Shown: piece by piece, positions 3,854 to 43,178 of the stretch | Layout: every line of letters starts with the position of its first letter | How positions within the stretch are numbered: the first letter of the stretch is position 1 | Source: a virus | Lineage: Duplodnaviria > Heunggongvirae > Uroviricota > Caudoviricetes | IMG/VR virus record: IMGVR_UViG_3300024272_000009 | Reading direction: 5' to 3' (one strand) | DNA: 64,000 nucleotides | The notes under the pieces: generated by a model | Told to the model about the DNA's origin: nothing | Database searches by the model: none | Seen by the model: the letters and a program-made list of their open reading frames with translations, nothing else | Made by a program: the position numbers and the translations under genes

Positions 3854-3885
3854 TTTAATTTCCTCCGTTGTTTTCTTACATTAAT

Positions 3886-3914
3886 ATTATATCACGTTTC
3901 GCGCGATTTGTAAA
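3886..3914 (-). promoter_or_regulatory. near-consensus sigma-A-type promoter (copy B of the duplicated cassette)
   Basis: Coding strand reads GTTTACA-aatcgcgcgaaacgTGaTATAAT: -35 TTTACA, 17-bp spacer, extended -10. Confidence 0.65.
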
Positions 3915-3971
3915 CCGACAAAACCAACAAAGTTTCAATAATTTTTCTGTGTGCTTTTGTGCAAAATAAAA

Positions 3972-6732: not shown

Positions 6733-6777
6733 TACCTTTCCTTAATTTTTATGTCTAAGAGCCGAAACTCTGTATTT

Positions 6778-6785
6778 AATTTAGC
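6778..6785 (-). promoter_or_regulatory. GCTAAATT box (conserved intergenic motif) upstream of nrdD
   Basis: Plus-strand aatttagc equals minus-strand GCTAAATT. It is one of at least 14 copies of this box in intergenic DNA. Confidence 0.5.
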
Positions 6786-6900
6786 TGATTACAGGGTCAA
6801 TTTTACCCTATAAAAGGAGCGGGACGACGAGTTTTACCTCATCGCCCCTGATGCCAATGAACACCACATACTCGCAATCACCTATAATATTATACGATAA

Positions 6901-9509: not shown

Positions 9510-9977
9510 TCAAGTTTCGTCAATAATTCCCGGCGTTCTAAGAATCCGGGTTGATTCCGAAATTAGGAAAGTTTCGTTCACTTCGCCGGCGACTAAGAAG
9601 ACTTTAAGTATCCGACCTTTGTAGCAGAGTCTAATATCTCTAAAGTCGCCGTTATGAAAATACTCTAATTTCGCGCCGGCGAAATCCGGACAATTACGGA
9701 AGTCAGTTATAAGGTCGAGTTCTCGATCCACAAACTTACACATATCTTCTTTGTAGTAGATATTGTTTAATCCTAGATCTACCAGCTTCCCTCTCCACTG
9801 AGCGAAACACTGATGACCGGGAGGATCAGAGAGGAAGTTCACAGTTTCCCCTCTGTACTCTATAGTATCGTAGCGAACTACTAATCCGAGTTCCCTGGCT
9901 TCCTTAGAGATCTCGAAGGATTGCTCTGAGTTCGTCGTCAAGCTTGTAGTTATTGGTGTTATTAAATTCGACTCCAT
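9510..9977 (-). CDS. hypothetical protein
   Basis: 155-aa ORF whose 5' end overlaps the 3' end of the SNF2 gene by 74 nt in another frame. Confidence 0.4.
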   Translation of the reverse strand: MESNLITPITTSLTTNSEQSFEISKEARELGLVVRYDTIEYRGETVNFLSDPPGHQCFAQWRGKLVDLGLNNIYYKEDMCKFVDRELDLITDFRNCPDFAGAKLEYFHNGDFRDIRLCYKGRILKVFLVAGEVNETFLISESTRILRTPGIIDET

Positions 9978-11631
9978 CTACGAGATACTCTCCTAGTTCT
10001 TTCTTAGTCTCTATGATCTGCTGAACCCTCTCGTCTATTGTATCCTTACACATGAGCACAGTAATGAAAGCGGGTCGAGTGTTATTAACTCTCCAGATTC
10101 TATCTGTGCCCTGGTCGAACATTGCTGCTGTATAAGGTGTATCTAGACATATGAGGTAAGAAGAAGAGTTCAAGGTCCAGCCAGTTCCGACTTTACCCCA
10201 AGTTCCTATAAAGACTTGCTCCTTAGGATCATCCTGGAATCTAGCAACGTTGTTAGCGACTACCGGATCCGGGATATCTCCAGTATTTATACTAAAACGA
10301 AATTCCCCGAGTTTCGCTGCAAGCTCATTTAGAGTTTCTTTAAAGACAGAGAGTACCACAACTTTCTCTCCTTGAGAAGTAAGTTCTTGGATCAGCTCTA
10401 GACAGCGATCCACTTTACATGAACTAACCGGCTGAGTAGTCAGGATACTCGGGCAGGCTGAAGCTTGTCTAAGTCTAGTAGTGAGAGCAAGGAGACTCGA
10501 GGTCTTAAGTTCGATCTTATCGGCTTCTTCCTTGACTCCTTCTTTGATTGCTTCATAGAACTTACGCTGATCATCTTCCGGCTCTAGAAGTTCCAGGGTT
10601 ACTGTCTTCGGCGGCATGTCTGATCTAACTTGGTCTAGAGTTCTTCTAAGTGAACACGACTTAATAACTTCCTGTAGAACCTCAAGATTCTTGAATCCTA
10701 TAACTTGGTTGTTTTTGAAACCTCCGAAATTACAGTACTGAGATTTATAGTTAGTCAGAATAGAGTTATCATTCCCGGTCCACGAGAGAGGGACATAGGC
10801 CGAGAGGGGATTATTAGTTATCAGGGTTCCGGTAGCGGCGATCTTAAAGGGAGCTTCAAGCTTAAGTAGGTTAGTTCCCTGCTGAGAAGTTTTAGTCGCT
10901 GCCTTATGAGCTTCATCGAAAGCAATCATCCCAAACTTATTAGCTGACTTATTGAAAGCTTCGATGATCCGGTCGTCTCTGAGTGACTCTAAGTTAGTGA
11001 TCACGAAGAACTCCTCTATTGGATCCTTGAGTTGCTGAGCTCTCTTGTCCATGGACCTATAGCGAGTAGTTCCGGTTCTAGTAGTGTACTCTCCTAGTAC
11101 AACAGCCGACTCGGTCGAGAACTTCTGAATCTCTTTCTTCCAGTTCTGCTTTAGGGAGTTGACTCCGCAGATAATGAAACAGTGATCGATTATCCCTCTC
11201 CTCTTAAGAGTCTCTGCTAGCCAGATGATAGAGTTAGTCTTTCCTAGACCCATAGAGTCAAGGAGTAGCCACTTCTCTTTGTCTAACCCAAAGTTAATAG
11301 CCTCGAGCTGATGTTCGAATGGTTTCATCTTGAACGAAACTTTCTCAATTTCGGTCAAGGGCTCCAGGTCAAAGTTTTTATTAAAATGAAATTCACCGTT
11401 TTCCGGTGTATCAAGTAATCGTAGTTGTATCTCATCCAAGAAAGTCAGGCTATCAAGTAATCTACCTAGATAACAAACAGGCAGCTCCCAAACCTTTTCT
11501 TTCTTGTGGTAGTGGGCAGTAGGAATAGTCTTAATAGAATCTACTATGTATTCATTATAGTCGAATTGGACTATAAGAGAACTAAGGCCTGATATTTTCT
11601 GTGGAGGAGAAATCTCGTAAATCTTAATCAT
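9904..11631 (-). CDS. SNF2/DEAD-like superfamily-2 helicase
   Basis: 575-aa protein with motif I LDSMGLGKT and motif II FDEAHK (DEAH box) at typical spacing. The C-terminal helicase domain is present. An AGGAG RBS precedes it. Confidence 0.85.
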   Translation of the reverse strand: MIKIYEISPPQKISGLSSLIVQFDYNEYIVDSIKTIPTAHYHKKEKVWELPVCYLGRLLDSLTFLDEIQLRLLDTPENGEFHFNKNFDLEPLTEIEKVSFKMKPFEHQLEAINFGLDKEKWLLLDSMGLGKTNSIIWLAETLKRRGIIDHCFIICGVNSLKQNWKKEIQKFSTESAVVLGEYTTRTGTTRYRSMDKRAQQLKDPIEEFFVITNLESLRDDRIIEAFNKSANKFGMIAFDEAHKAATKTSQQGTNLLKLEAPFKIAATGTLITNNPLSAYVPLSWTGNDNSILTNYKSQYCNFGGFKNNQVIGFKNLEVLQEVIKSCSLRRTLDQVRSDMPPKTVTLELLEPEDDQRKFYEAIKEGVKEEADKIELKTSSLLALTTRLRQASACPSILTTQPVSSCKVDRCLELIQELTSQGEKVVVLSVFKETLNELAAKLGEFRFSINTGDIPDPVVANNVARFQDDPKEQVFIGTWGKVGTGWTLNSSSYLICLDTPYTAAMFDQGTDRIWRVNNTRPAFITVLMCKDTIDERVQQIIETKKELGEYLVDGVEFNNTNNYKLDDELRAILRDL

Positions 11632-11645
11632 AACGAAATCTCCTA

Positions 11646-11747
11646 AGTTACGTATTTGAAATAAATGAGATTACCGAAATTACAGAAGTTACAGAATGAG
11701 ATTTTTGTAATTTCGGAAGTTACGCACGCCTTTACGCGCACGCGTAA
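11646..11747. repeat. iteron-like region: three AAGTTAC(G/A) direct repeats, an 11-bp inverted repeat and the CG palindrome TTACGCG-ca-CGCGTAA
   Basis: AAGTTACG is at 11646-11653 and 11717-11724, and AAGTTACA at 11687-11694. ccgaaattaca (11674-11684) pairs with tgtaatttcgg (11706-11716). The palindrome is at 11732-11747. Confidence 0.6.
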
Positions 11748-11753
11748 GGAAAA

Positions 11754-11808
11754 GGCTAAATTTGTGCTAAAAAACGCAAAAATGTGCAAATTAGCACTAA
11801 ATTTAGCC
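11754..11808. promoter_or_regulatory. 17/18-bp inverted repeat built from two GCTAAATTT half-sites (operator/terminator-like hairpin)
   Basis: ggctaaatttgtgctaa (11754-11770) and ttagcactaaatttagcc (11791-11808) are reverse complements with one bulge. The loop is 20 nt. Confidence 0.6.
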
Positions 11809-11822
11809 TGAAATATGTATAA

Positions 11823-12128
11823 TTAGTCTAAGAGTGAGACATATTGGGTAGAAAAGTCCTTCTCTGGTGCTTCTGCCATAGTCTTATATGTAATAGTTGC
11901 TTCAACTACAAAGGGTTTATCACAGTAATCACAAATATAATGCTCAATCATGTCGGGTTCTTTTCCCTCTCGGTAGTCTTCATAAATGATCTTACCAAGA
12001 GAATCCTTTACTAAATCTTCCGGCTGGCCGATCAAGGCACCAGGTATATAAATTTCTCCCGGAAGGTATTGAGCACCACAATGTGGGCACTTAAAACTAG
12101 CTGATTTACGGGTGGTATTAGAACACAT
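11823..12128 (-). CDS. zinc-ribbon protein (CxxC...CxxC)
   Basis: 101-aa ORF with an AAGGAG RBS. The Cys pairs are CPHCG and CDYCD. The 11-mer CGCGCACGCGT flanks it on both sides. Confidence 0.6.
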   Translation of the reverse strand: MCSNTTRKSASFKCPHCGAQYLPGEIYIPGALIGQPEDLVKDSLGKIIYEDYREGKEPDMIEHYICDYCDKPFVVEATITYKTMAEAPEKDFSTQYVSLLD

Positions 12129-12701
12129 AATCTATCAAACTCCTTAAAATTCGAAAAATAAATTTTTTATGAAAAATAATTAGCACGCGCGCACGCGTCT
12201 AACGCTATATATATAATACTCCAGCGTTATATTATATATCTATAATAGATATATTTATTTTTTTTATATATTTTTTATTTTTATTTTAGATCTTGAGAAA
12301 AATATATAGCTATTGCGGCAAGCCGCTAGGCCGTTGGCCTATAGAGCTAAACAATATTTATTATTATAGATCTATATATAATAATATACAGTATAATATC
12401 TAGTAATTTATCAATTTATTAAAAAATTTTCAGAAAAATATGTTATTTATTGAGGCGAGCTATTAATTTATTAATTTAATAGTTTAATAAATATTTGCAA
12501 ACTTTTTGTAAATTATTTTCCGGGCACAGGTAGGTAAGGCTAGAACATCGACGACAGGGCTCCTTATTCTCTCTGTATCGAGTTTTATGGTAGGGGGCCT
12601 GGTGTTTATATGTCTGCAGTCTTAAACGCGAAATAGGTAGCTTAAAACGCGCCAAAACAAATTGTAAAAATAAAGGCCCCTGTGAAGAGGCCTTAAATTT
12701 A
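12129..12701. other. 570-bp non-coding AT-rich region with GC-rich mini-palindromes (candidate replication origin or packaging region)
   Basis: It contains no credible ORF. Runs of TA/TATATA are interrupted by gcggcaagccgc and ggccgttggcc palindromes, aacgct...agcgtt, and two AGATCT sites. It is the only large gap in an otherwise dense genome. Confidence 0.45.
12661..12694 (-). terminator. Rho-independent terminator after gene 12702..13817
   Basis: aaggcc (12673-12678) pairs with ggcctt (12689-12694) around a 10-nt loop. On the minus strand it is followed by tatttttaca. Confidence 0.6.
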
Positions 12702-13817
12702 TTAAATTGATTCTTTCCAGCCTGTAGGAGTTTTTGTGTACACACCACAGGACTCCTTCCAGCCATTAGGGGTCTTAACCCAGACTTGACCTTCTACCCA
12801 ACCCTTAGAAGTTTTGATTCTTACTAAACCGAGTTGTTTATTAAGTGCCTCAGAAGAAATTCCGGGACCGGCGAGTAAAGAGCTATTTAGTATCTCATCC
12901 TCTGTCGGCTCGTAGTCTACAGAAAGTCCATAAACCGTAAAAGGATATACAGCAACCTTTATTTGATAATCTCTCTCTATACCCAGGTCTAATGGATTAA
13001 AATAAATTTCAGTAGTATCGGCGCCTAAGATAGGGACTTCAATATCTTTACCGGCTATTTCATAACTTTCGATCGGCGGCTCATCCTCGAGTGCCTCTAT
13101 AGAAGCCGTAACAGCAGGATCAGACTTCTCAAGCCAGTAGCCTGAATCTTTCTTTACTGCGGTCAGTCCTTTTACCACACTAAAAGATCCTGACTCTCCT
13201 GCTCTATATCTAAGCTCTACACAGTAGCCATATACAGGAGAATAGTCTGCAGCCGGCTCTGCCTTAGTCCAAGAGCACTTAGTTCTATAGGAAGTCTCCT
13301 TCTTTACTTCTACCACGCCGCTCATGGTTGGGGCGAACTCAAGATAATAAGGAAGCTTCGCTGCTGCAGTATTTATTGAACAGGTTTTTTCATAAACAGC
13401 GCCAGTATCGCTGAAGGCTTTTACCTTAGCAGTAAAGCAGCCGTTAGCTTTACATAAAGTTTTTAAGTCCAGATTTTCAAAAGGTATGCGACATTCAAAT
13501 ATAGTTGCATTTCTATAATAATTATTATATACTTCTAACTTACTTTTTGTCTTGTAAGCAGTGACAGTGGCAGCCTTAAAGGTAGTTAGAATGGGAAGGT
13601 AGACACCTTCGAGATAATAAAATTCTAACTTGTCCCTACCGCTAGCAAAACCAAGACTTTCTCCATCGGATACTTTTGTGTGCGCGGCAGTATAAACAGC
13701 ACCATGAAAAAGTTTACACTTAATAGTAAAAAATCTTTTATAATCCCAATGGCACTCAAGCTGTCGCCACTCATCTTCAAATTCTACTGAACATTCTAGC
13801 TTTAAAGGTTCAGCCAT
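12702..13817 (-). CDS. hypothetical protein with C-terminal tandem peptide repeats (possible virion/adsorption protein)
   Basis: 371-aa ORF. The C-terminus reads GWVEGQVWVKTPNGWKESCGVYTKTPTGWKESI, with repeated TPxGWKES units. Confidence 0.55.
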   Translation of the reverse strand: MAEPLKLECSVEFEDEWRQLECHWDYKRFFTIKCKLFHGAVYTAAHTKVSDGESLGFASGRDKLEFYYLEGVYLPILTTFKAATVTAYKTKSKLEVYNNYYRNATIFECRIPFENLDLKTLCKANGCFTAKVKAFSDTGAVYEKTCSINTAAAKLPYYLEFAPTMSGVVEVKKETSYRTKCSWTKAEPAADYSPVYGYCVELRYRAGESGSFSVVKGLTAVKKDSGYWLEKSDPAVTASIEALEDEPPIESYEIAGKDIEVPILGADTTEIYFNPLDLGIERDYQIKVAVYPFTVYGLSVDYEPTEDEILNSSLLAGPGISSEALNKQLGLVRIKTSKGWVEGQVWVKTPNGWKESCGVYTKTPTGWKESI

Positions 13818-13820
13818 AAG

Positions 13821-14414
13821 TTATTCCTCTCTTTCTGCCGCGGACTCTATATGAGAAAGAACATCTTGGATTATTTCTTTAGTAGCATCAGAAAGATTCT
13901 TCTCCGGGTCGTCCATAGCTTTATTATAATAAAAATCAGAAAGTTCTTTTAGGTCTCCCTTATCTATAGAGAAGGAACCCCAGTCGCAGAGCATCTCAAG
14001 AATATAGATATAAGGCATGTCTTCTCCCAGCCAGAATTCAGGGTGATGCTCATTGTTCATCCAGTGATGCTTCCATGCTTCCTCATACTCGAAGGTCTTC
14101 TCTCCGTTGCCATACCACTTCTGAGCGTAAGGCTCGAACTCTTCTTCCGAGAATTTAGACTCATCGTGTTCATTAATAACTTCATGGAAAGCATCGAGGT
14201 CGACGCCCTCGAAAACTTCAGGACAATTTTCTTCTAGCCAGGAAGCAAACTTCTTTACTCTTTCTTTATGTGCTTCTATATACTCTTGATATTCTTTCTG
14301 ATAATCCGCTCCGCCCTCTGCTATAGCGCTAAGAGCATGAAGAGCATTAATAAAATTCATATTCATCTTTTCTTGCTGCCTTTCTATATAGATTAAAAGC
14401 TTCCAAGGAAGCAA
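13821..14414 (-). CDS. hypothetical protein
   Basis: 197-aa acidic ORF with His/Trp-rich motifs (HHWMNNEHHPEFW). Confidence 0.55.
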   Translation of the reverse strand: MLPWKLLIYIERQQEKMNMNFINALHALSAIAEGGADYQKEYQEYIEAHKERVKKFASWLEENCPEVFEGVDLDAFHEVINEHDESKFSEEEFEPYAQKWYGNGEKTFEYEEAWKHHWMNNEHHPEFWLGEDMPYIYILEMLCDWGSFSIDKGDLKELSDFYYNKAMDDPEKNLSDATKEIIQDVLSHIESAAEREE

Positions 14415-16451: not shown

Positions 16452-17138
16452 TTACGCGGCCTTCTGAAGTTTAGTCCAGTTATACCAACCGTAGAAAGCA
16501 TTAGCAGTCCAAGCAATATACATAGCAACCATAGACCACTGACCGAGAATAATAAACATAACCAAACTTACTACATCGATAAGAATCCAGCACGCCCACT
16601 GTTCTCTATATCTCCAAATCATAAGAAGCTGGGCAATAACAGCAAGAGCAACAGTCATAGCATCAAGATAAGGAAGGGTGCTTCCGAGAACGGCTTCACC
16701 GAAATAACCAAGAAGGAAAGTACTTACCGCTACTACGCCAACAGACCCAAGCCACTGCCAAAGCTTAAACTTCTTTGCCTTAACCTGTTCAGTACCGTCG
16801 TCATTCTTCTTCATATTCTTCTTCCACATAAAAACGCCGAAGATACAAACAATAAAGTAGAACACCTGTTCGCCAAACTCAAGATAGAGAGCAAGGTCCC
16901 AGCAAATAATCATATAAGTAATCATCTGCACAAAGTTAAAGATATACGAAGAAATCTTTCCCTTTGCTGTGAGAGCGACACAGATAACACCCGCAAGTCC
17001 ACAGATAATTCCGATAGCAGTGTCAGGGACGATGAAATACATAATTACCTGAAGCAAAATCAAGGAAGCGAAAAAGATTCTCTCAAAAGCCGTGTAGCCG
17101 TTCCAAAATTCATTCTTAAGCCATTTTACCATTTTCAA
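16452..17138 (-). CDS. pnuC: nicotinamide riboside transporter PnuC-like membrane protein
   Basis: 228 aa with about 7 predicted TM helices. It is Trp-rich, with conserved W/N-containing helices typical of PnuC. It overlaps the nadR-like gene by 23 nt. Confidence 0.65.
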   Translation of the reverse strand: MKMVKWLKNEFWNGYTAFERIFFASLILLQVIMYFIVPDTAIGIICGLAGVICVALTAKGKISSYIFNFVQMITYMIICWDLALYLEFGEQVFYFIVCIFGVFMWKKNMKKNDDGTEQVKAKKFKLWQWLGSVGVVAVSTFLLGYFGEAVLGSTLPYLDAMTVALAVIAQLLMIWRYREQWACWILIDVVSLVMFIILGQWSMVAMYIAWTANAFYGWYNWTKLQKAA

Positions 17139-18225
17139 TAATCTCCTTTACATCATCAACAATTTTCTTAAAGTTATTATAATATCCGCCGTCGAGGATA
17201 ACTACCTTATCCCAATTACCTGAAGCTTTGATATTGTTACAAAGAATCTCAAAGAGTTCTCTTCTTTCTGTATCGCCGCTGAAAGCCATGTATCTAGTAT
17301 GGTCGTCTACAAATACTCCGTGAGGGCAGAGAAGATAAATTTTATCCCAACGACATTTCTTAGTGATCGCATCCGCAGCAACAGCGATTTCTTTAAACTC
17401 TTCCTCAGTTAGGTCGAGATCAGGGTCTCTGTGATAATACTCAGCATACATTCGAGTAGTCATACTATCAGAGTCTGCGAAGAAGATTCCCTGATTACTT
17501 GGCGAGTTGATGAGTTTCTTATTCATCTGATACTGACCGTCAAGAAAAGCAAGATAGTCAGCCCCGTCGAGTTCCCACTCAGAAATATAACTTTCTTCCA
17601 TATAGTCTCTTGCATATTCAGTAGAATAGGGTGCGTTGAAATACTTACCAAGGTCTTTTACAAGAGTAGTTTTTCCTTCACTTGCTGTGCCGCAGATAAG
17701 AATATTAGTACTGAAGACTCTTCTGAAGGGAAAAGTAATTTTATCCCAATACTTAATAGGATTATGTCTGATCATTGTCGCAGAAATAGGGTTAAGTGTT
17801 CTATCAAGTAACACCACTTCATAGCCAAGACTTTCAAGATGAGTAGCATATGCCTCCTCGCTTACATAGAAAACAGCCTCGCACAAATCTGTAGCATTTC
17901 TGATAATCTCATTTACCTTAAGCATAAACTTATTCCACCCATTAGGATAAGCTTCGATACCAAGCTCAGTCTCATCGATAGGGTAAACAGCCACAAGGTC
18001 GTCGTCGGCAAAGAACTCTCTTACATAACGATAACGCTTTCTAAGAGGCATAAGCTCACCACCACGATCTCCGTCTCTACCGTCTACGATAACAATACAA
18101 CCACCGTCGCATTCTTTCTTAGCTCGCATAATAACATCAAGGTGTCCCTGATGAAGCGGAGCAAAAGTTCCGAAGACAACACCAACTGTTTTACCTTGCA
18201 AAGGCTTCTGATAAGTATAAATCAT
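17116..18225 (-). CDS. nadR: NadR-like bifunctional NMN adenylyltransferase / ribosylnicotinamide kinase
   Basis: 369 aa. The N-terminal nucleotidyltransferase motif is GVVFGTFAPLHQGHL (GxFxPxHxGH). The C-terminal P-loop kinase domain carries ICGTASEGKTT. There is no N-terminal HTH, as in Haemophilus-type NadR. Confidence 0.8.
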   Translation of the reverse strand: MIYTYQKPLQGKTVGVVFGTFAPLHQGHLDVIMRAKKECDGGCIVIVDGRDGDRGGELMPLRKRYRYVREFFADDDLVAVYPIDETELGIEAYPNGWNKFMLKVNEIIRNATDLCEAVFYVSEEAYATHLESLGYEVVLLDRTLNPISATMIRHNPIKYWDKITFPFRRVFSTNILICGTASEGKTTLVKDLGKYFNAPYSTEYARDYMEESYISEWELDGADYLAFLDGQYQMNKKLINSPSNQGIFFADSDSMTTRMYAEYYHRDPDLDLTEEEFKEIAVAADAITKKCRWDKIYLLCPHGVFVDDHTRYMAFSGDTERRELFEILCNNIKASGNWDKVVILDGGYYNNFKKIVDDVKEIIENGKMA

Positions 18226-18291
18226 TTACGTCCTCCTTAATCACTTTGTAATATATAATACAATATGAAATTTATTAAATTAATAAATTAA

Positions 18292-28400: not shown

Positions 28401-28414
28401 TTAATATTCAATTA

Positions 28415-28579
28415 TTATAGTTCTCGATTTTCAAAGTAGTGTTCTAAAATATACCTTATAAGAGCTGATACAGTAATACCTCTGGCATTAGCAGTTTCTT
28501 TTAAACGTTCAATCAGCGGTTTTGATGACTCAAAAGTTTGTATAACCTTGTCACTTCTATCTACTTTTTTACGTCCCAT
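28415..28579 (-). CDS. ribbon-helix-helix (CopG/Arc/MetJ-like) DNA-binding protein; absent from the ORF track because shorter than 60 aa
   Basis: Minus-strand ATG at 28579 through TAA at 28415 gives 54 aa: MGRKKVDRSDKVIQTFESSKPLIERLKETANARGITVSALIRYILEHYFENREL. An RBS sits 8 nt upstream. The beta-strand/helix/helix pattern is that of RHH proteins. Confidence 0.55.
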   Translation of the reverse strand: MGRKKVDRSDKVIQTFESSKPLIERLKETANARGITVSALIRYILEHYFENREL

Positions 28580-28625
28580 TATAAAAGTCCTTTCTCTAAG
28601 ATATATAGCTTTTGACTACTATATA

Positions 28626-28633
28626 ATTTAGCA
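28626..28633 (-). promoter_or_regulatory. GCTAAATT box
   Basis: Minus strand reads TCTGCTAAATTATATAG, between the tube terminator and the RHH gene. Confidence 0.5.
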
Positions 28634-28654
28634 GAACAATAAATAGATTTATTA

Positions 28655-28690
28655 AAAATAAAAAAGAGTAGTAACTTACTACTCTTTTTT
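28655..28690 (-). terminator. Rho-independent terminator after the tube-like gene
   Basis: aaagagtagta (28664-28674) pairs with tactactcttt (28678-28688). A/T runs flank it. Confidence 0.7.
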
Positions 28691-28708
28691 ATTTTTATTT
28701 ATTATATA

Positions 28709-36788: not shown

Positions 36789-38120
36789 TTAGTCAACGAT
36801 CTTACCGGAAACAAGGAGAGCCTCGTTAAGGAGTGCCTTAGCATACCAAGTGCTGAAGCCCTGTGCCATACCGCCATCGGGAGTACCGAGAAGCTGAGTA
36901 GGAACGATTGCCATGTAAGGAGCGTAAACACCAGCAGAGCTCATCATGTCGTTACCGTTGAGGCCGAGGAAGAATTCACCCTTGCCAAGGATAGGAGAAA
37001 CGTAAACGTTAAGGCCGTCAAGCTCACCAACCTTGTAAGGACCATTCATCTTAGCGTTCTTAACAGCAGTAAAGCCGTTAACGAAACGGAGAACAGGAAG
37101 AACGTCAGAAGCGATTACCATGTAGTTAGGATGGAACTTCTTGGTTCTGTTATAGATAACCATCTTAGCTTCTTCGATAACTTCAAGGAAGCCGTTGTAG
37201 TGCTCGAACTTAGAAACGCCAGCAGGAAGTGTCTTAGACCACTCTCTAACACCCTCGAGTTTCTTAGAGCCCTGGTAAAGCATGTCAACGATCTCAGTGT
37301 CGATTTCGTAAGCGAGCTCACCGCAAGCCTGCTCAGCGATCTGCTTGTCAAGAGAGAAGCCATAGTCAGTCTTAGCCTGGAAAGCAGTGATCTGGTCGTA
37401 ACGAACAGCAATTCTACGAGGCTCAGCAACGAGAGGAATGTGCTTCATGCGAGGACCGATAGTAGGAATGTTCTCAGCAGGAACTTTCTCCATCTGATAC
37501 TCCATAGCCTTGTAAGCAACTCTGTCGCCTGCCTTAGGAGTGTAGGAAGTCTCATACTTGCCGTTTACCTTGTAAGCAGCAGTCTTAACAGTCTTGGTCT
37601 CTTCATCGAAGTACTTGAAGCCTTCAGGATCAATTTCGCTAGCCTCGAATGCAAGAGCAACATTACCATCTTCGTCAGCAACAAGAGTTTCAACAACGAT
37701 CTGGGAAGTGTAGCTCATACGCTCAGTGCTCATTTCACCAAGACCGAATACACCGTTAAGAACCTTACCCTGCATACCAGCCTTGTCAGAAAGTGCTACG
37801 TACTCAAGGTAAGCAACAGAACCAGAGTAACTGGTCATAGGATGAACGATAACGAGGTCGTTAGCGATAAGAGAAGGAACAGCGATGTTGGTGAGGTTCA
37901 AGCAGAACTTCTTCCAAGCGCCAAGCTGGCTACGGTCAGTAGCGTTGCCAAGAGCACCGATATCCATAGACTCGGTCATCCAACGGTTAGTGTTGTCAAG
38001 AAGAACAGCAGTAGTAAGTGCTGTGTTAGAAGAAATAGTCTTGCCTTCAAAGTTCTTAGCTACATAAGCTTCAGCAACCTTGAGCTGACGAGAATAAGTC
38101 TCAAGAAGATTTTGTTTCAT
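36789..38120 (-). CDS. putative major capsid protein
   Basis: 443 aa. Codon usage is very different from its neighbours, with G/C-ending preferred codons, indicating very high expression. It follows the scaffold-like gene downstream of the portal. Confidence 0.6.
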   Translation of the reverse strand: MKQNLLETYSRQLKVAEAYVAKNFEGKTISSNTALTTAVLLDNTNRWMTESMDIGALGNATDRSQLGAWKKFCLNLTNIAVPSLIANDLVIVHPMTSYSGSVAYLEYVALSDKAGMQGKVLNGVFGLGEMSTERMSYTSQIVVETLVADEDGNVALAFEASEIDPEGFKYFDEETKTVKTAAYKVNGKYETSYTPKAGDRVAYKAMEYQMEKVPAENIPTIGPRMKHIPLVAEPRRIAVRYDQITAFQAKTDYGFSLDKQIAEQACGELAYEIDTEIVDMLYQGSKKLEGVREWSKTLPAGVSKFEHYNGFLEVIEEAKMVIYNRTKKFHPNYMVIASDVLPVLRFVNGFTAVKNAKMNGPYKVGELDGLNVYVSPILGKGEFFLGLNGNDMMSSAGVYAPYMAIVPTQLLGTPDGGMAQGFSTWYAKALLNEALLVSGKIVD

Positions 38121-40557: not shown

Positions 40558-40634
40558 TTTTAACTCTCCTTATAGGTGATAATTTTTAATTAATTTAATT
40601 TAAGATGTTTAATTACACATCTTTATGATCAATT

Positions 40635-40642
40635 AATTTAGC
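40635..40642 (-). promoter_or_regulatory. GCTAAATT box
   Basis: Minus strand reads TTAGCTAAATTAATTG. Confidence 0.45.
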
Positions 40643-40670
40643 TAATATTTTTGTATTAAAATTAAATAAA

Positions 40671-40708
40671 AAATAAACTATATTATTTTTTATTAATATA
40701 GTTTATTT
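40671..40708 (-). terminator. AT-rich 15-bp inverted-repeat terminator after gene 40723..41196
   Basis: aaataaactatatta pairs with taatatagtttattt. The loop is ttttttat. Confidence 0.55.
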
Positions 40709-40722
40709 TTTATATTATATTT

Positions 40723-41196
40723 TTAATTTAGTGCGTCACGTCGACCGCTGATATGCTCGAGTACAAGTAAATCTGACTTGAGTAGCTTTAGCAGAGCGAT
40801 GCACTGATCAAACTCGCCAGTGCTGTAATAGCTGTTTAGCACTCTTGAAATTTCTTCGGCGCGTACTTCTCGCTGAAAAATTTCTTTATTTGTCGGAAGC
40901 TTTCTTCCATACAGGGTGATTTGTACTAGTAGACAGGCAAGTGTTGTAATAACCTCATCAGTATCATAAATGTCTTTTACAATATTATGATATAGAGGTG
41001 ATTTCTTCTGGTTGTGTTTTTTACGAAGCATTTCATAAAAATTAGCAACCTCAATACCACGGTTGTCTAAGATAAACTTTAGCACTTCCATAGGAATTTC
41101 TTTGCTCGTTACAAGCTTCCTCATAGGCTTATCTATATTGATTCCCTTGTCTTCAAGTGAGACCAGGATAGTCAAACAATCATTTTTTGTAATCAT
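40723..41196 (-). CDS. hypothetical protein
   Basis: 157-aa ORF directly after the portal gene. Confidence 0.45.
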   Translation of the reverse strand: MITKNDCLTILVSLEDKGINIDKPMRKLVTSKEIPMEVLKFILDNRGIEVANFYEMLRKKHNQKKSPLYHNIVKDIYDTDEVITTLACLLVQITLYGRKLPTNKEIFQREVRAEEISRVLNSYYSTGEFDQCIALLKLLKSDLLVLEHISGRRDALN

Positions 41197-41222: not shown

Positions 41223-43178
41223 TTAGTTATTTTCAGAGAAATCTTTTTCCGCATCTAAGTCACTTGGTGAGGGGAGGTCATCTTCAGTAAGAATTATATT
41301 ACTAAGAACATCCTGCTCCTCTAACAACAAATCACCGGTGCCTACATTAAATGCTTCTAGATTAAGTTCCTCAAGTGAGCCCAAATCTATATCTTCTGCT
41401 GGTTCCTCGGCTGCTTCTGTTTCCACTTCTGTATCTTCTGCTGTGGTGTTTTCTTCATTTTCAGCTTCGAGAGCTGCTTCAGCAGCGGCTTCTTCAATAG
41501 CCTTAATTTCGGCATCTATTTCCACATTAATATCATCGCCATAGTCAAGTCCAGCAAGAAGAGCTTTTAAGATACGCAGACGTCTAGGCTTATCTTCAAT
41601 ATCAGTAAATAATCCCTGCATACTGCTGATTGCATTAATCTTGTTAGAAAGGTCAGCACGGTAGTCAATTTCTTCCTGAGTGATAGGCGCTTTCATTTTA
41701 AGAGTAAAGTTATTGAGATAGCTCTTGAGGCCCTTGTTAAGAAGGAAAAGATTGATAGCGTCTGTGAGTGCCTGAATCATTGCATTCTGAACTCTCTTAA
41801 CACCTTTAGCATAAACGCTAGAAAGAATAGTAAGAGAAGTACCCCCATTAAAGCCTGCACCATCGTCGGTCCAGCCAAAGTACTGCTTAGGAATACCATA
41901 AGAAGAATAGAACTTATTATTCCACCAGTCAAGGTCAGCGAGGTTCTTTACTTCAACATCACCGCCGACTGCTTCTACGGTAATATTTCCTTGGCCACCG
42001 TGTGTTGCAAAATAAATATTATTTTCCATTGGGCCTGGGTTGTTATACTCATTCATTGAGTTGCCAACGTTTAGAGCACTCTTTTGCTCCATCATTTCCT
42101 TAACGCGACGTAGGGTTTGCTGAACTTGTTCTTTCGGCATGTCACCGACTTCTACGCCAACTTTACGTACTACACTTGAACGGGTAATTCTGTTTAAGAG
42201 TGCGGCGCTTTCAAGTAGTGCTTTCTCTCGCCAAATCTTATAAGAATCGTATAGAAGTGATTTACCACGTCTAACACTATAAGATTGGCTCTTTGTACCA
42301 TCAGCATCGATAAACAAATCAACAGTTTCTGGGTATCTAGTAAAGTTATCTTCAAGACAGGCGTGAACAAAGTCATCAGCTTGGAATACATTTACATCTG
42401 CAGACTTCATTCTAAAGTTATATGTACCAGAAGCAGTTACACCTGTAAAAGCTGATGTATTATCTACGGTAGATGTTTCATTTGGTGTTTCTATATAGCC
42501 GTAGGTTTTACCAAATTTGGTAAGCTCAAACATTGTGCCAGGGTCATCTACTGCTTCTACATAGTAGCTGTATGGGTCTGAAGCGGTGTGTAAATTAAGT
42601 TTAACTGCCTCATCAAGAGTCTCTTTCTTAGGCTCTTCATCTATACTTATATCAAAAGCTTCATTAAGTGTATTTCTCGCAGAATATACTTTATCAATGT
42701 TATCAGTCTTAAATAATGCATCGGCATAGTCTGACTCTCGATAAAGTCGTAGGTACACATCACCGTATTTTAATAGTGCATACGTCCAGCCAAACATATT
42801 TTTATCTGCATTCATGGTGTTTAGCAAGTAGTTAACAAATTTACTAACTTTTGGGTCGCTAGCCTCACACCAAATAACATGTCCATTGTCTGCAGGCTCA
42901 CAGACATCTTCTGCATACGTTCTTAATATCGAGGCGACAGAAGAATCCTGAGCCATAGTATCAATTAACTGATATATCTGGTCACGTGAATTTGAGATAC
43001 TGGTAAAGTTCTCAAGTGCTGCAACATCAAGCTTGCTATTTAAGCCAGCTTCTATAATATTGTCTACTAAAGTTTTATTGACGTCAATATCTAGCGTGGT
43101 CGTATTGTCAAGTGTTATTGGTTGTGTCTGACTGCCGACTAGCGCATGCGACGTTTTAGTTGTAGTATTTTCCGCCAT
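41223..43178 (-). CDS. putative portal protein
   Basis: 651-aa ORF immediately downstream of the large terminase. The C-terminus is an acidic tail. The call rests on size and position. Confidence 0.55.
   Translation of the reverse strand: MAENTTTKTSHALVGSQTQPITLDNTTTLDIDVNKTLVDNIIEAGLNSKLDVAALENFTSISNSRDQIYQLIDTMAQDSSVASILRTYAEDVCEPADNGHVIWCEASDPKVSKFVNYLLNTMNADKNMFGWTYALLKYGDVYLRLYRESDYADALFKTDNIDKVYSARNTLNEAFDISIDEEPKKETLDEAVKLNLHTASDPYSYYVEAVDDPGTMFELTKFGKTYGYIETPNETSTVDNTSAFTGVTASGTYNFRMKSADVNVFQADDFVHACLEDNFTRYPETVDLFIDADGTKSQSYSVRRGKSLLYDSYKIWREKALLESAALLNRITRSSVVRKVGVEVGDMPKEQVQQTLRRVKEMMEQKSALNVGNSMNEYNNPGPMENNIYFATHGGQGNITVEAVGGDVEVKNLADLDWWNNKFYSSYGIPKQYFGWTDDGAGFNGGTSLTILSSVYAKGVKRVQNAMIQALTDAINLFLLNKGLKSYLNNFTLKMKAPITQEEIDYRADLSNKINAISSMQGLFTDIEDKPRRLRILKALLAGLDYGDDINVEIDAEIKAIEEAAAEAALEAENEENTTAEDTEVETEAAEEPAEDIDLGSLEELNLEAFNVGTGDLLLEEQDVLSNIILTEDDLPSPSDLDAEKDFSENN

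Follow-up and report, generated by a model that had tools for sequence, protein, structure and literature searches.

A long conserved non-coding gap ahead of a zinc-ribbon and SNF2 helicase gene pair in an uncultured large phage: a candidate transcription-control region

Among the described phage elements that the locus reported here resembles are multi-promoter and leader control regions and the hairpins of phage transcripts, exemplified by the C(UUCG)G hairpins of T4 and the 5' stabiliser hairpins of Bacillus phage early RNAs. On the side of replication it resembles iteron-type origins such as lambda ori, SPP1 oriL and the origins of lactococcal phages. The locus is a 573-bp gap (positions 12129-12701) in IMG/VR record IMGVR_UViG_3300024272_000009, a stretch of 64,000 nucleotides of tailed-phage DNA that we call the window. 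The gap separates a 101-amino-acid zinc-ribbon gene, here znf (11823-12128), which is followed by an SNF2 helicase gene (9904-11631), from an upstream gene of 371 amino acids (12702-13817), all three on the minus strand. A further point of comparison is T4 oriF and oriG, in which a middle-mode promoter is followed downstream by a DNA unwinding element and replication uses an R-loop primer (PMC4412123).

Like phage control regions with several promoters and a leader, the gap contains a terminator followed by tandem promoter-like motifs, and a ribosome-binding site before the first gene of the operon. Like the intercistronic tetraloop hairpins of phages, it has GC-rich hairpins, one with a CUUG loop, that show compensatory changes on the transcribed strand. 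It differs from known phage leader regions in being far longer (530-930 bp among its relatives) and from the 5' stabiliser systems in the place of its hairpins, about 35-60 nt from the predicted start instead of at the extreme 5' end. Nothing in those leader and hairpin systems corresponds to its unique repeated module, its extreme AT tract or its invariant alternating GC box. The kind of element is known, and the particular layout is new to description. We lean towards reading the gap as a terminator, one or more promoters and a structured leader with an operator-like GC box, placed ahead of the znf-SNF2 pair. In this reading it also marks a boundary: the genes downstream serve replication and nucleotide metabolism, and those upstream are variable accessory genes and late genes.

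A shared order of blocks upstream of znf

We fetched 81 loci with the helicase and znf proteins as anchors and counted as close relatives those with a znf protein at least 63% identical. In nearly all close relatives 530-930 bp directly upstream of znf are non-coding, despite a differing gene on the far side, and identity across the gap is about 70% in loci whose helicase proteins share 92-97%. The alignment of at least 23 distinct relatives shows one shared block order, which is given below in gene-strand order together with the features of the window.

12664-12694, minus: block 1, intrinsic terminator of the 371-amino-acid gene from a terminator scan, AAGGCCTCT-TCAC-AGGGGCCTT then TATTTTT; across the alignment, a terminator hairpin and T-run right after the upstream stop codon
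12540-12656, minus: block 2, repeated module of about 100 nt with the core ..TATAA..AGGSCC..AAAACGCGATACAGAGAGAATTTGGAGCC and partial dyad symmetry; one to three tandem modules across the alignment
12484-12512, minus: possible weak sigma-70-type promoter P1, TTTACA (12512-12507), 17-nt spacer, TATTAA (12489-12484), from the sequence and alignment A2
12454-12490, minus: block 3, three TTATTAAAYTA repeats (direct-repeat family D1) and then the conserved AATAGCYCGCC; A2 has invariant columns here, and across the alignment block 3 comprises a TTTACAAAAA-TTCACAAAT block and three such repeats, closing in AATAGCCCGCC
12398-12428, minus: block 4, second AT-rich repeat block TTTTTTAATAAATTGATAAATTACTAG, immediately upstream of P2 (family D1, conserved in A2)
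12381-12393, minus: block 4, promoter-like motif P2, TACTGTATATTAT, one mismatch from the class ii consensus TATYGTATAWTAT; the block motif is TAYTGTATAWTAT and the gap motif TGTATATT
Next in order: block 5, TAGATAGATCTAT
12327-12341, minus: block 6, mini-hairpin 1, TAGGCC-AAC-GGCCTA, from covariation; two or three GC mini-hairpins across the alignment
12315-12326, minus: block 6, mini-hairpin 2, GCGG-CTTG-CCGC, with a CUUG-type loop, from covariation
12228-12310, no strand assigned: block 7, A-rich and TA-rich low-complexity tract, candidate easily melted element or leader spacer
12197-12229, minus: block 8, two short repeats, TATAACGCTGGAG and TATAGCGTTAGAC, also readable as the inverted repeat AACGCT/AGCGTT; one to three TATATAG-N5-AGA(S)GCG short repeats across the alignment
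12183-12198, no strand assigned: block 9, GC box ACGCGTGCGCGCGTGC, alternating purine and pyrimidine
12172-12184, minus: block 9, GCTAATTATTTTT, a class iii variant shorter by one base and possible proximal promoter P3; across the alignment the GC box is followed by GCTAAT(W)ATTTTT, 51-69 nt before the ATG
12126-12145, minus: block 10 (AGGAG and ATG), znf ribosome-binding site AAGGAG (12145-12140) and start codon (12128-12126)

The ribosome-binding AGGAG stands 7-12 nt before the znf ATG in all relatives. The layout is recognisable beyond the close relatives, in a locus (L027) whose helicase is 62% identical to that of the window: the sequences are different, and the parts are AT repeats, TTGTATAAT, two GC hairpins, four CTAGGGAC repeats and an alternating GC box. 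One of the close relatives (L064) has two genes inserted between the GC box and znf, and its upstream blocks are unchanged, which fits elements that drive whatever lies downstream. The insert (L064:1080-1760) consists of a small ribbon-helix-helix-like gene and an HNH-like gene.

We find the gap to be non-coding, conserved and functional. It is the longest stretch of the window free of open reading frames (ORFs) once a predicted 96-amino-acid ORF (12476-12766, minus strand) is discounted. The initial annotation had called it the only long non-coding stretch in 64 kb, which is right as to rank and slightly overstated as to the rest, the runners-up being 333, 308 and 278 bp. It had also dismissed the ORF as spurious, and rightly so: the ORF runs into the upstream gene, covering its terminator and part of its 3' end, has no PHROG hit, and gave no tblastn match in any relative, even at 97% helicase identity. 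The 308-bp runner-up (28401-28708) is itself probably not gene-free, because a small ORF, MGRKKVDRSDKV...ITVSALIRYILEHYFENREL (28420-28578, minus strand), resembling a ribbon-helix-helix regulator, lies inside it.

The left 347 bp of the gap (12129-12475) have a GC content of 23%, compared with about 38% across the window. The GC mini-palindromes that had been picked out from the letters alone in this AT-rich setting are all present and prove to be real conserved elements: ACGCG-CGCA-CGCGT at 12184-12198, AACGCT at 12201-12206 with AGCGTT at 12223-12228, GCGGCAAGCCGC at 12315-12326 and GGCCGTTGGCC (previously written ggccgttggcc) at 12329-12339, together with the bracketing ATAGCTAT and CTATAGAGCT. 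The two AGATCT sites are likewise present (12288 and 12368); with 26 occurrences in 64 kb, two in 573 bp are a mild excess only. The GC elements are not chance: GCGCGC occurs in the window solely inside the gap (ACGCGT occurs three times) and the two longest GC-rich alternating purine/pyrimidine runs of the window, 12183-12198 and 11733-11746, are both GC boxes.

Signals for transcription in the gap

Signals for transcription account for much of what is conserved: a terminator, a promoter-like motif of a recurrent class, AT blocks shared with other promoter-like sites and hairpins of the gene strand. The hairpins are, on comparative grounds, the best-supported structural element. In mini-hairpin 1 the stem is kept by compensatory changes, TAGGCT/AGCCTA in L057 among them, and 10 of the 23 sequences have G-U pairs in it that exist on the gene strand only; the other strand would carry C-A mismatches. 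Mini-hairpin 2 shows the double change GCAG/CTGC in six sequences, and in three divergent relatives (L001, L012 and L013) unrelated stems with CTTG(T) loops occupy the same position. When both hairpins are taken jointly over the 23 sequences, 91% of cells are paired and 7 of the 10 pairs have changes on both sides, a result reached by 0 of 500 shuffles; slid controls are 16-56% paired. Because the G-U pairs fit the gene strand only, the hairpins function in single-stranded form with the sequence of the gene strand, and the simplest such form is RNA from a promoter about 45 nt upstream.

P2 stands at that position and belongs to a recurrent class. Class ii has 48 matches in total compared with 13.7 expected (0 of 100 shuffles), and at one mismatch or fewer there are 12 sites, P2 and 11 others, all on the minus strand and all intergenic. 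The pattern T.TA.TGTAT..TA is invariant across the 23 relatives. TATYGTATAWTAT is a general signal of the phage, and P2 would be an active promoter. P2 is unusual in its distance from the gene: its end lies 254 nt from the znf ATG in the window and roughly 210-340 nt in relatives, whereas nine other class ii sites lie 25-53 nt from a start codon, and the only other long-distance site is that of nrdD, at about 156 nt.

Blocks of TTATTAAATTA repeats like those in front of P2 also precede promoter-like motifs near 18262, 40140 and 57390, and because the same blocks front those motifs we regard them as promoter-associated and not as origin-specific iterons. Upstream of P2, P1 is possibly a weak sigma-70-type promoter; its -35 context GTTTACAAA matches that of both canonical promoters near 2180 and 3890, and P1 did not pass the promoter scan. 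Those two canonical promoters (about 2165-2205 and 3885-3925, minus strand) are near-identical, GTTTACAAATCG...GTGATATAATAT, with TTTACA, a 17-nt spacer, TATAAT and an extended -10.

A third motif class, class iii (TGCTAAATTAW), has 13 of its 14 copies on the minus strand, in intergenic positions mostly ahead of structural genes, and is probably a late-promoter class. Its sites include 9488, 15937, 28623, 31128, 36691, 40131, 46276, 48650 and 54521, often directly after a terminator. The shortened variant GCTAATTATTTTT that follows the GC box, in a region conserved as GC[TA]AAT[TA][AT]TTTTT, may act as the proximal promoter P3.

At the other end of the gap, the terminator (12694-12673) has nine pairs and a T-run, begins 8 nt past the stop codon (12704-12702) of the 371-amino-acid gene, and scores as an intrinsic terminator. 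In relatives a GC hairpin and T-run of other sequence stand just after the upstream gene (alignment A1), so that the position of the terminator is conserved and its sequence is not. Rfam gave only weak matches below threshold, restricted to this terminator-like hairpin. The adjoining module of about 100 nt occurs once in the window and nowhere else in the 64 kb; nhmmer found 23 distinct copies in relatives, every one in the same gap (alignment A3). RNAalifold finds no consensus structure for it. A hand-drawn 17-pair hairpin was rejected as a structured RNA, with no covariation and 59.5% paired compared with 58.2% in shuffles, and single-sequence folds of 12500-12701 on the two strands are uninformative (z-scores -1.1 and -0.5). 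We take the module to be a repeat at the level of DNA, partly dyad-symmetric.

Nearer to znf come the short repeats and the GC box. The short repeats occupy the same place in relatives, in one to three copies of TATATAG-N5-AGA(S)GCG, with the four CTAGGGAC of L027 as the distant counterpart. The GC box is nearly invariant in the 23 relatives and is the longest GC-rich alternating run. A second GC box, TACGCGTGCGCGTA on the minus strand, lies between znf and the helicase gene, and the two boxes have ACGCGTGCGCG in common:

11733-11746, no strand assigned: second GC box, in the znf-helicase gap

The znf-helicase gap (11632-11822) is present in many relatives and missing in six (L054, L058, L060, L061, L063 and L066). 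On the minus strand it also holds a long hairpin with a T-run, AGGCTAAATTTAGTGCTAA...TTAGCACAAATTTAGCCT, and an 11-bp inverted repeat, CCGAAATTACA/TGTAATTTCGG.

Put together as a transcription-control region, the gap would work as follows. The intrinsic terminator would close the upstream operon, and protein-binding-like repeats (the module of about 100 nt, a TTYACAAA pair and the TTATTAAATTA blocks) would come next, preceding a promoter of the recurrent TATYGTATAWTAT class. Transcription from P2 would give a leader of about 250 nt with two stable GC hairpins at its start, one of them closed by a CUUG-type loop, and the leader would continue through the A-rich tract, the short repeats and the invariant GC box to the znf ribosome-binding site. 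The most likely role of the hairpins is in protecting or processing the RNA in its 5' part. The GC box and adjoining repeats would most likely serve as an operator or belong to a second, proximal promoter, and in this way set znf and helicase expression.

Several points weigh against this account and keep our preference for it modest. The promoters are consensus matches only, and at 530-930 bp the gap would be a very long promoter region by phage standards. A promoter and leader leave no evident task for the extreme AT tract or for the module in its one to three copies. Single-sequence folds of the leader are modestly better than shuffles (z-scores -1.2 to -1.9). The hairpin of the GC box was considered as an attenuator and is unconvincing, since its T-run is distant from the stem and not adjacent to it. 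Finally, a promoter, an easily melted tract and repeats beside replication genes are also what a transcription-activated origin would look like.

Origin, small RNA and packaging site as alternatives

The initial annotation had proposed the gap as a candidate replication origin or packaging signal, and no test gave a sign of either activity. A transcription-activated origin, alone or alongside promoter function, is nevertheless a tentative second reading, and promoter and origin functions are not mutually exclusive. According to this reading the P2 transcript would enter the unstable AT tract 95-160 nt downstream, where a persistent RNA-DNA hybrid would prime the leading strand as at T4 oriF and oriG; the GC hairpins could form in the displaced gene-sense strand; and an initiator would bind the short repeats, GC box and upstream modules, or these would mark the limits of the melted region. 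In its fullest form, which is equally tentative, the gap would be a transcription-fired origin of a widespread group of uncultured large gut and rumen phages: RNA from a general phage promoter would pass through two CUUG-type hairpins into an unwinding tract of conserved composition, with short repeats and an invariant alternating GC "clamp" as its bounds, and the tandem 100-nt modules upstream would serve as landing pads for an initiator, possibly the zinc-ribbon protein itself.

The marked easily melted tract expected from inspection is there: no other 60-bp duplex of the 64 kb is as unstable as 12228-12287, just downstream of the promoter-like motif, as an unwinding element would be. In 14 of 16 relatives' loci the corresponding position likewise has the 60-mer of lowest stability; composition is conserved there and sequence is not. 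But low stability is not exclusive to the gap, since other intergenic gaps are nearly as unstable and 40631-40730 ranks first at 100 and 200 bp. The gap resembles T4 oriF and oriG in that transcription from its promoter-like motif would run into a non-coding tract; the low stability of this tract is conserved and its sequence is not. The differences are that the unstable tract here begins about 95 nt downstream, past two hairpins, that the promoter class is general in the phage, that the phage is unrelated to T4 and that the arrangement is known here from sequence alone.

Further support for an origin comes from the length of the gap, the longest non-coding region of the window and of similar length in relatives, from adjoining genes of replication type and from repeat copy numbers that vary among relatives (one to three modules, one to four short repeats before the GC box). 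In having direct repeats beside an AT-rich region near replication genes, with repeat number differing between relatives, the gap resembles iteron-type origins. It differs from them in that the only site-specific direct repeats of the window are the two short, degenerate ones before the GC box (one to four in relatives): the larger TTATTAAATTA repeats are not site-specific, and AT-repeat blocks with a promoter motif are common to ordinary promoters elsewhere in the window. No DnaA box with one mismatch or fewer occurs in 12129-12701, and no initiator, primase or polymerase gene was identified nearby. The initial annotation had seen the classical origin layout in an AT-rich unwinding region, structured GC elements and a helicase gene. 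The easily melted tract and the GC elements are real, but the neighbouring helicase is SNF2-type and not replicative, and znf intervenes between it and the gap.

Cumulative GC skew, the check proposed for an inflection at the site, falls steadily through it, with no turn or clean change of slope and only a flat stretch at 10-13 kb; it is a weak test here, since all genes are co-oriented and the skew was computed on the 64-kb window. A slight difference in skew between the two sides of the gap was too weak to use. Were the origin to be confirmed, large gut phages, for which there is at present no genetics, would gain from the gap an origin and promoter set that is defined and portable, and the gap is the one non-coding region worth origin testing. 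Failing that, it is an ordinary though unusually elaborate phage control region.

A free-standing small non-coding RNA, consisting of the module or of the hairpin segment driven by P2 and not part of the znf mRNA, is improbable. A conserved non-coding RNA found by comparison is an outcome that the initial annotation had set against its own proposal, and part of it is seen here in covarying, strand-specific hairpins with gene-strand G-U pairs. The conservation, gap-only occurrence and tandem copies of the module and the unusually long distance from P2 to the ATG also speak for a small RNA. Against it, no Rfam family reached the gathering score in the window or in 14 relatives, ARAGORN found no transfer RNA or transfer-messenger RNA genes, the module lacks a consensus fold and covariation, and between the hairpins and znf there is no terminator except the weak GC-box hairpin with its detached T-run.

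A packaging signal (pac or cos) or physical genome end is the weakest alternative and very unlikely: AT-rich DNA with GC palindromes superficially resembles some cos and pac regions and several metagenome contigs end within the gap (L055, L057, L060, L065, L068, L070 and L074-L076), but the portal, protease and capsid genes are 24-30 kb distant, the site is internal in relatives of 168 and 233 kb, and the contig ends are scattered from -175 to -575 relative to the ATG, which fits better with what they probably are, assembly breaks in AT-rich, strain-variable DNA. With offsets spread over 400 bp and biased sampling, the contig ends were not used as evidence. A large terminase gene was not identified in the window, and sequence searches of the 682- and 567-amino-acid proteins against PHROGs, Pfam and PDB failed to find one.

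The phage, its relatives and a second long leader

The genes of the window, all on the minus strand, are such as a large tailed phage carries. The stretch at 29-43 kb encodes portal, protease, major capsid and sheath proteins, and a topoisomerase, an SbcC-like protein, NadR-like and PnuC-like proteins and an anaerobic ribonucleotide reductase are encoded in the window besides the SNF2 helicase. The positions of the structural genes used above are:

41223-43178, minus: portal gene
36789-38120, minus: protease and capsid genes

The NadR-like gene (cytidylyltransferase and AAA_28 domains) and the PnuC-like transporter gene occupy 16452-18225 on the minus strand and match the NAD salvage genes reported for gut jumbo phages (PMC11662467). 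Judged by its genes, the window fits the gut "NAD-jumbo phages" of that report.

There is no close cultured phage: blastn of 11000-14000 against 50,697 phage records gave no match and the SNF2 helicase is at best 24-35% identical to those of cultured phages. IMG/VR and metagenome collections hold many relatives, contigs of 168 and 233 kb among them. Public metagenomes contain about 500 clusters of the znf protein, and a homologue search gave 495 relatives, all unannotated. The window is that of an uncultured large gut or rumen phage from an abundant group. Two relatives were placed in metagenome bins labelled Bacteroidales; as to the host, the consistent AGGAG ribosome-binding sites urge caution.

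The znf protein has zinc-ribbon matches in Pfam and PHROGs at sub-threshold scores only, and the mean confidence of its AlphaFold model (predicted local distance difference test, pLDDT) is 48. The N-terminus of the SNF2 helicase has a weak match to the HARP domain (E 5.7e-4, under the Pfam cut-off), which hints at an annealing helicase and not an unwinding enzyme.

For the uncultured group, the gap and the sites that resemble it amount to a first map of transcription signals, comprising three motif classes, terminators and two long structured leaders. The second of these leaders belongs to nrdD, the anaerobic ribonucleotide reductase gene, where about 155 nt of leader come after a class ii motif at 6899-6887 (window 6733-6899, minus strand). 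This leader had no match in Rfam. Its predicted fold has an energy of -47.8 kcal/mol (z-score -3.72), and 0 of 200 shuffles were as stable. It is 85% identical in one relative (L004), and another (L011) keeps the hairpin GGGGCGATGAG-GTAAAA-CTCGTCGTCCC through compensatory changes, which makes the nrdD leader a candidate for a new cis-regulatory RNA. Because it too is long and strongly structured, long structured leaders before replication and nucleotide-metabolism genes seem to be a habit of this phage.

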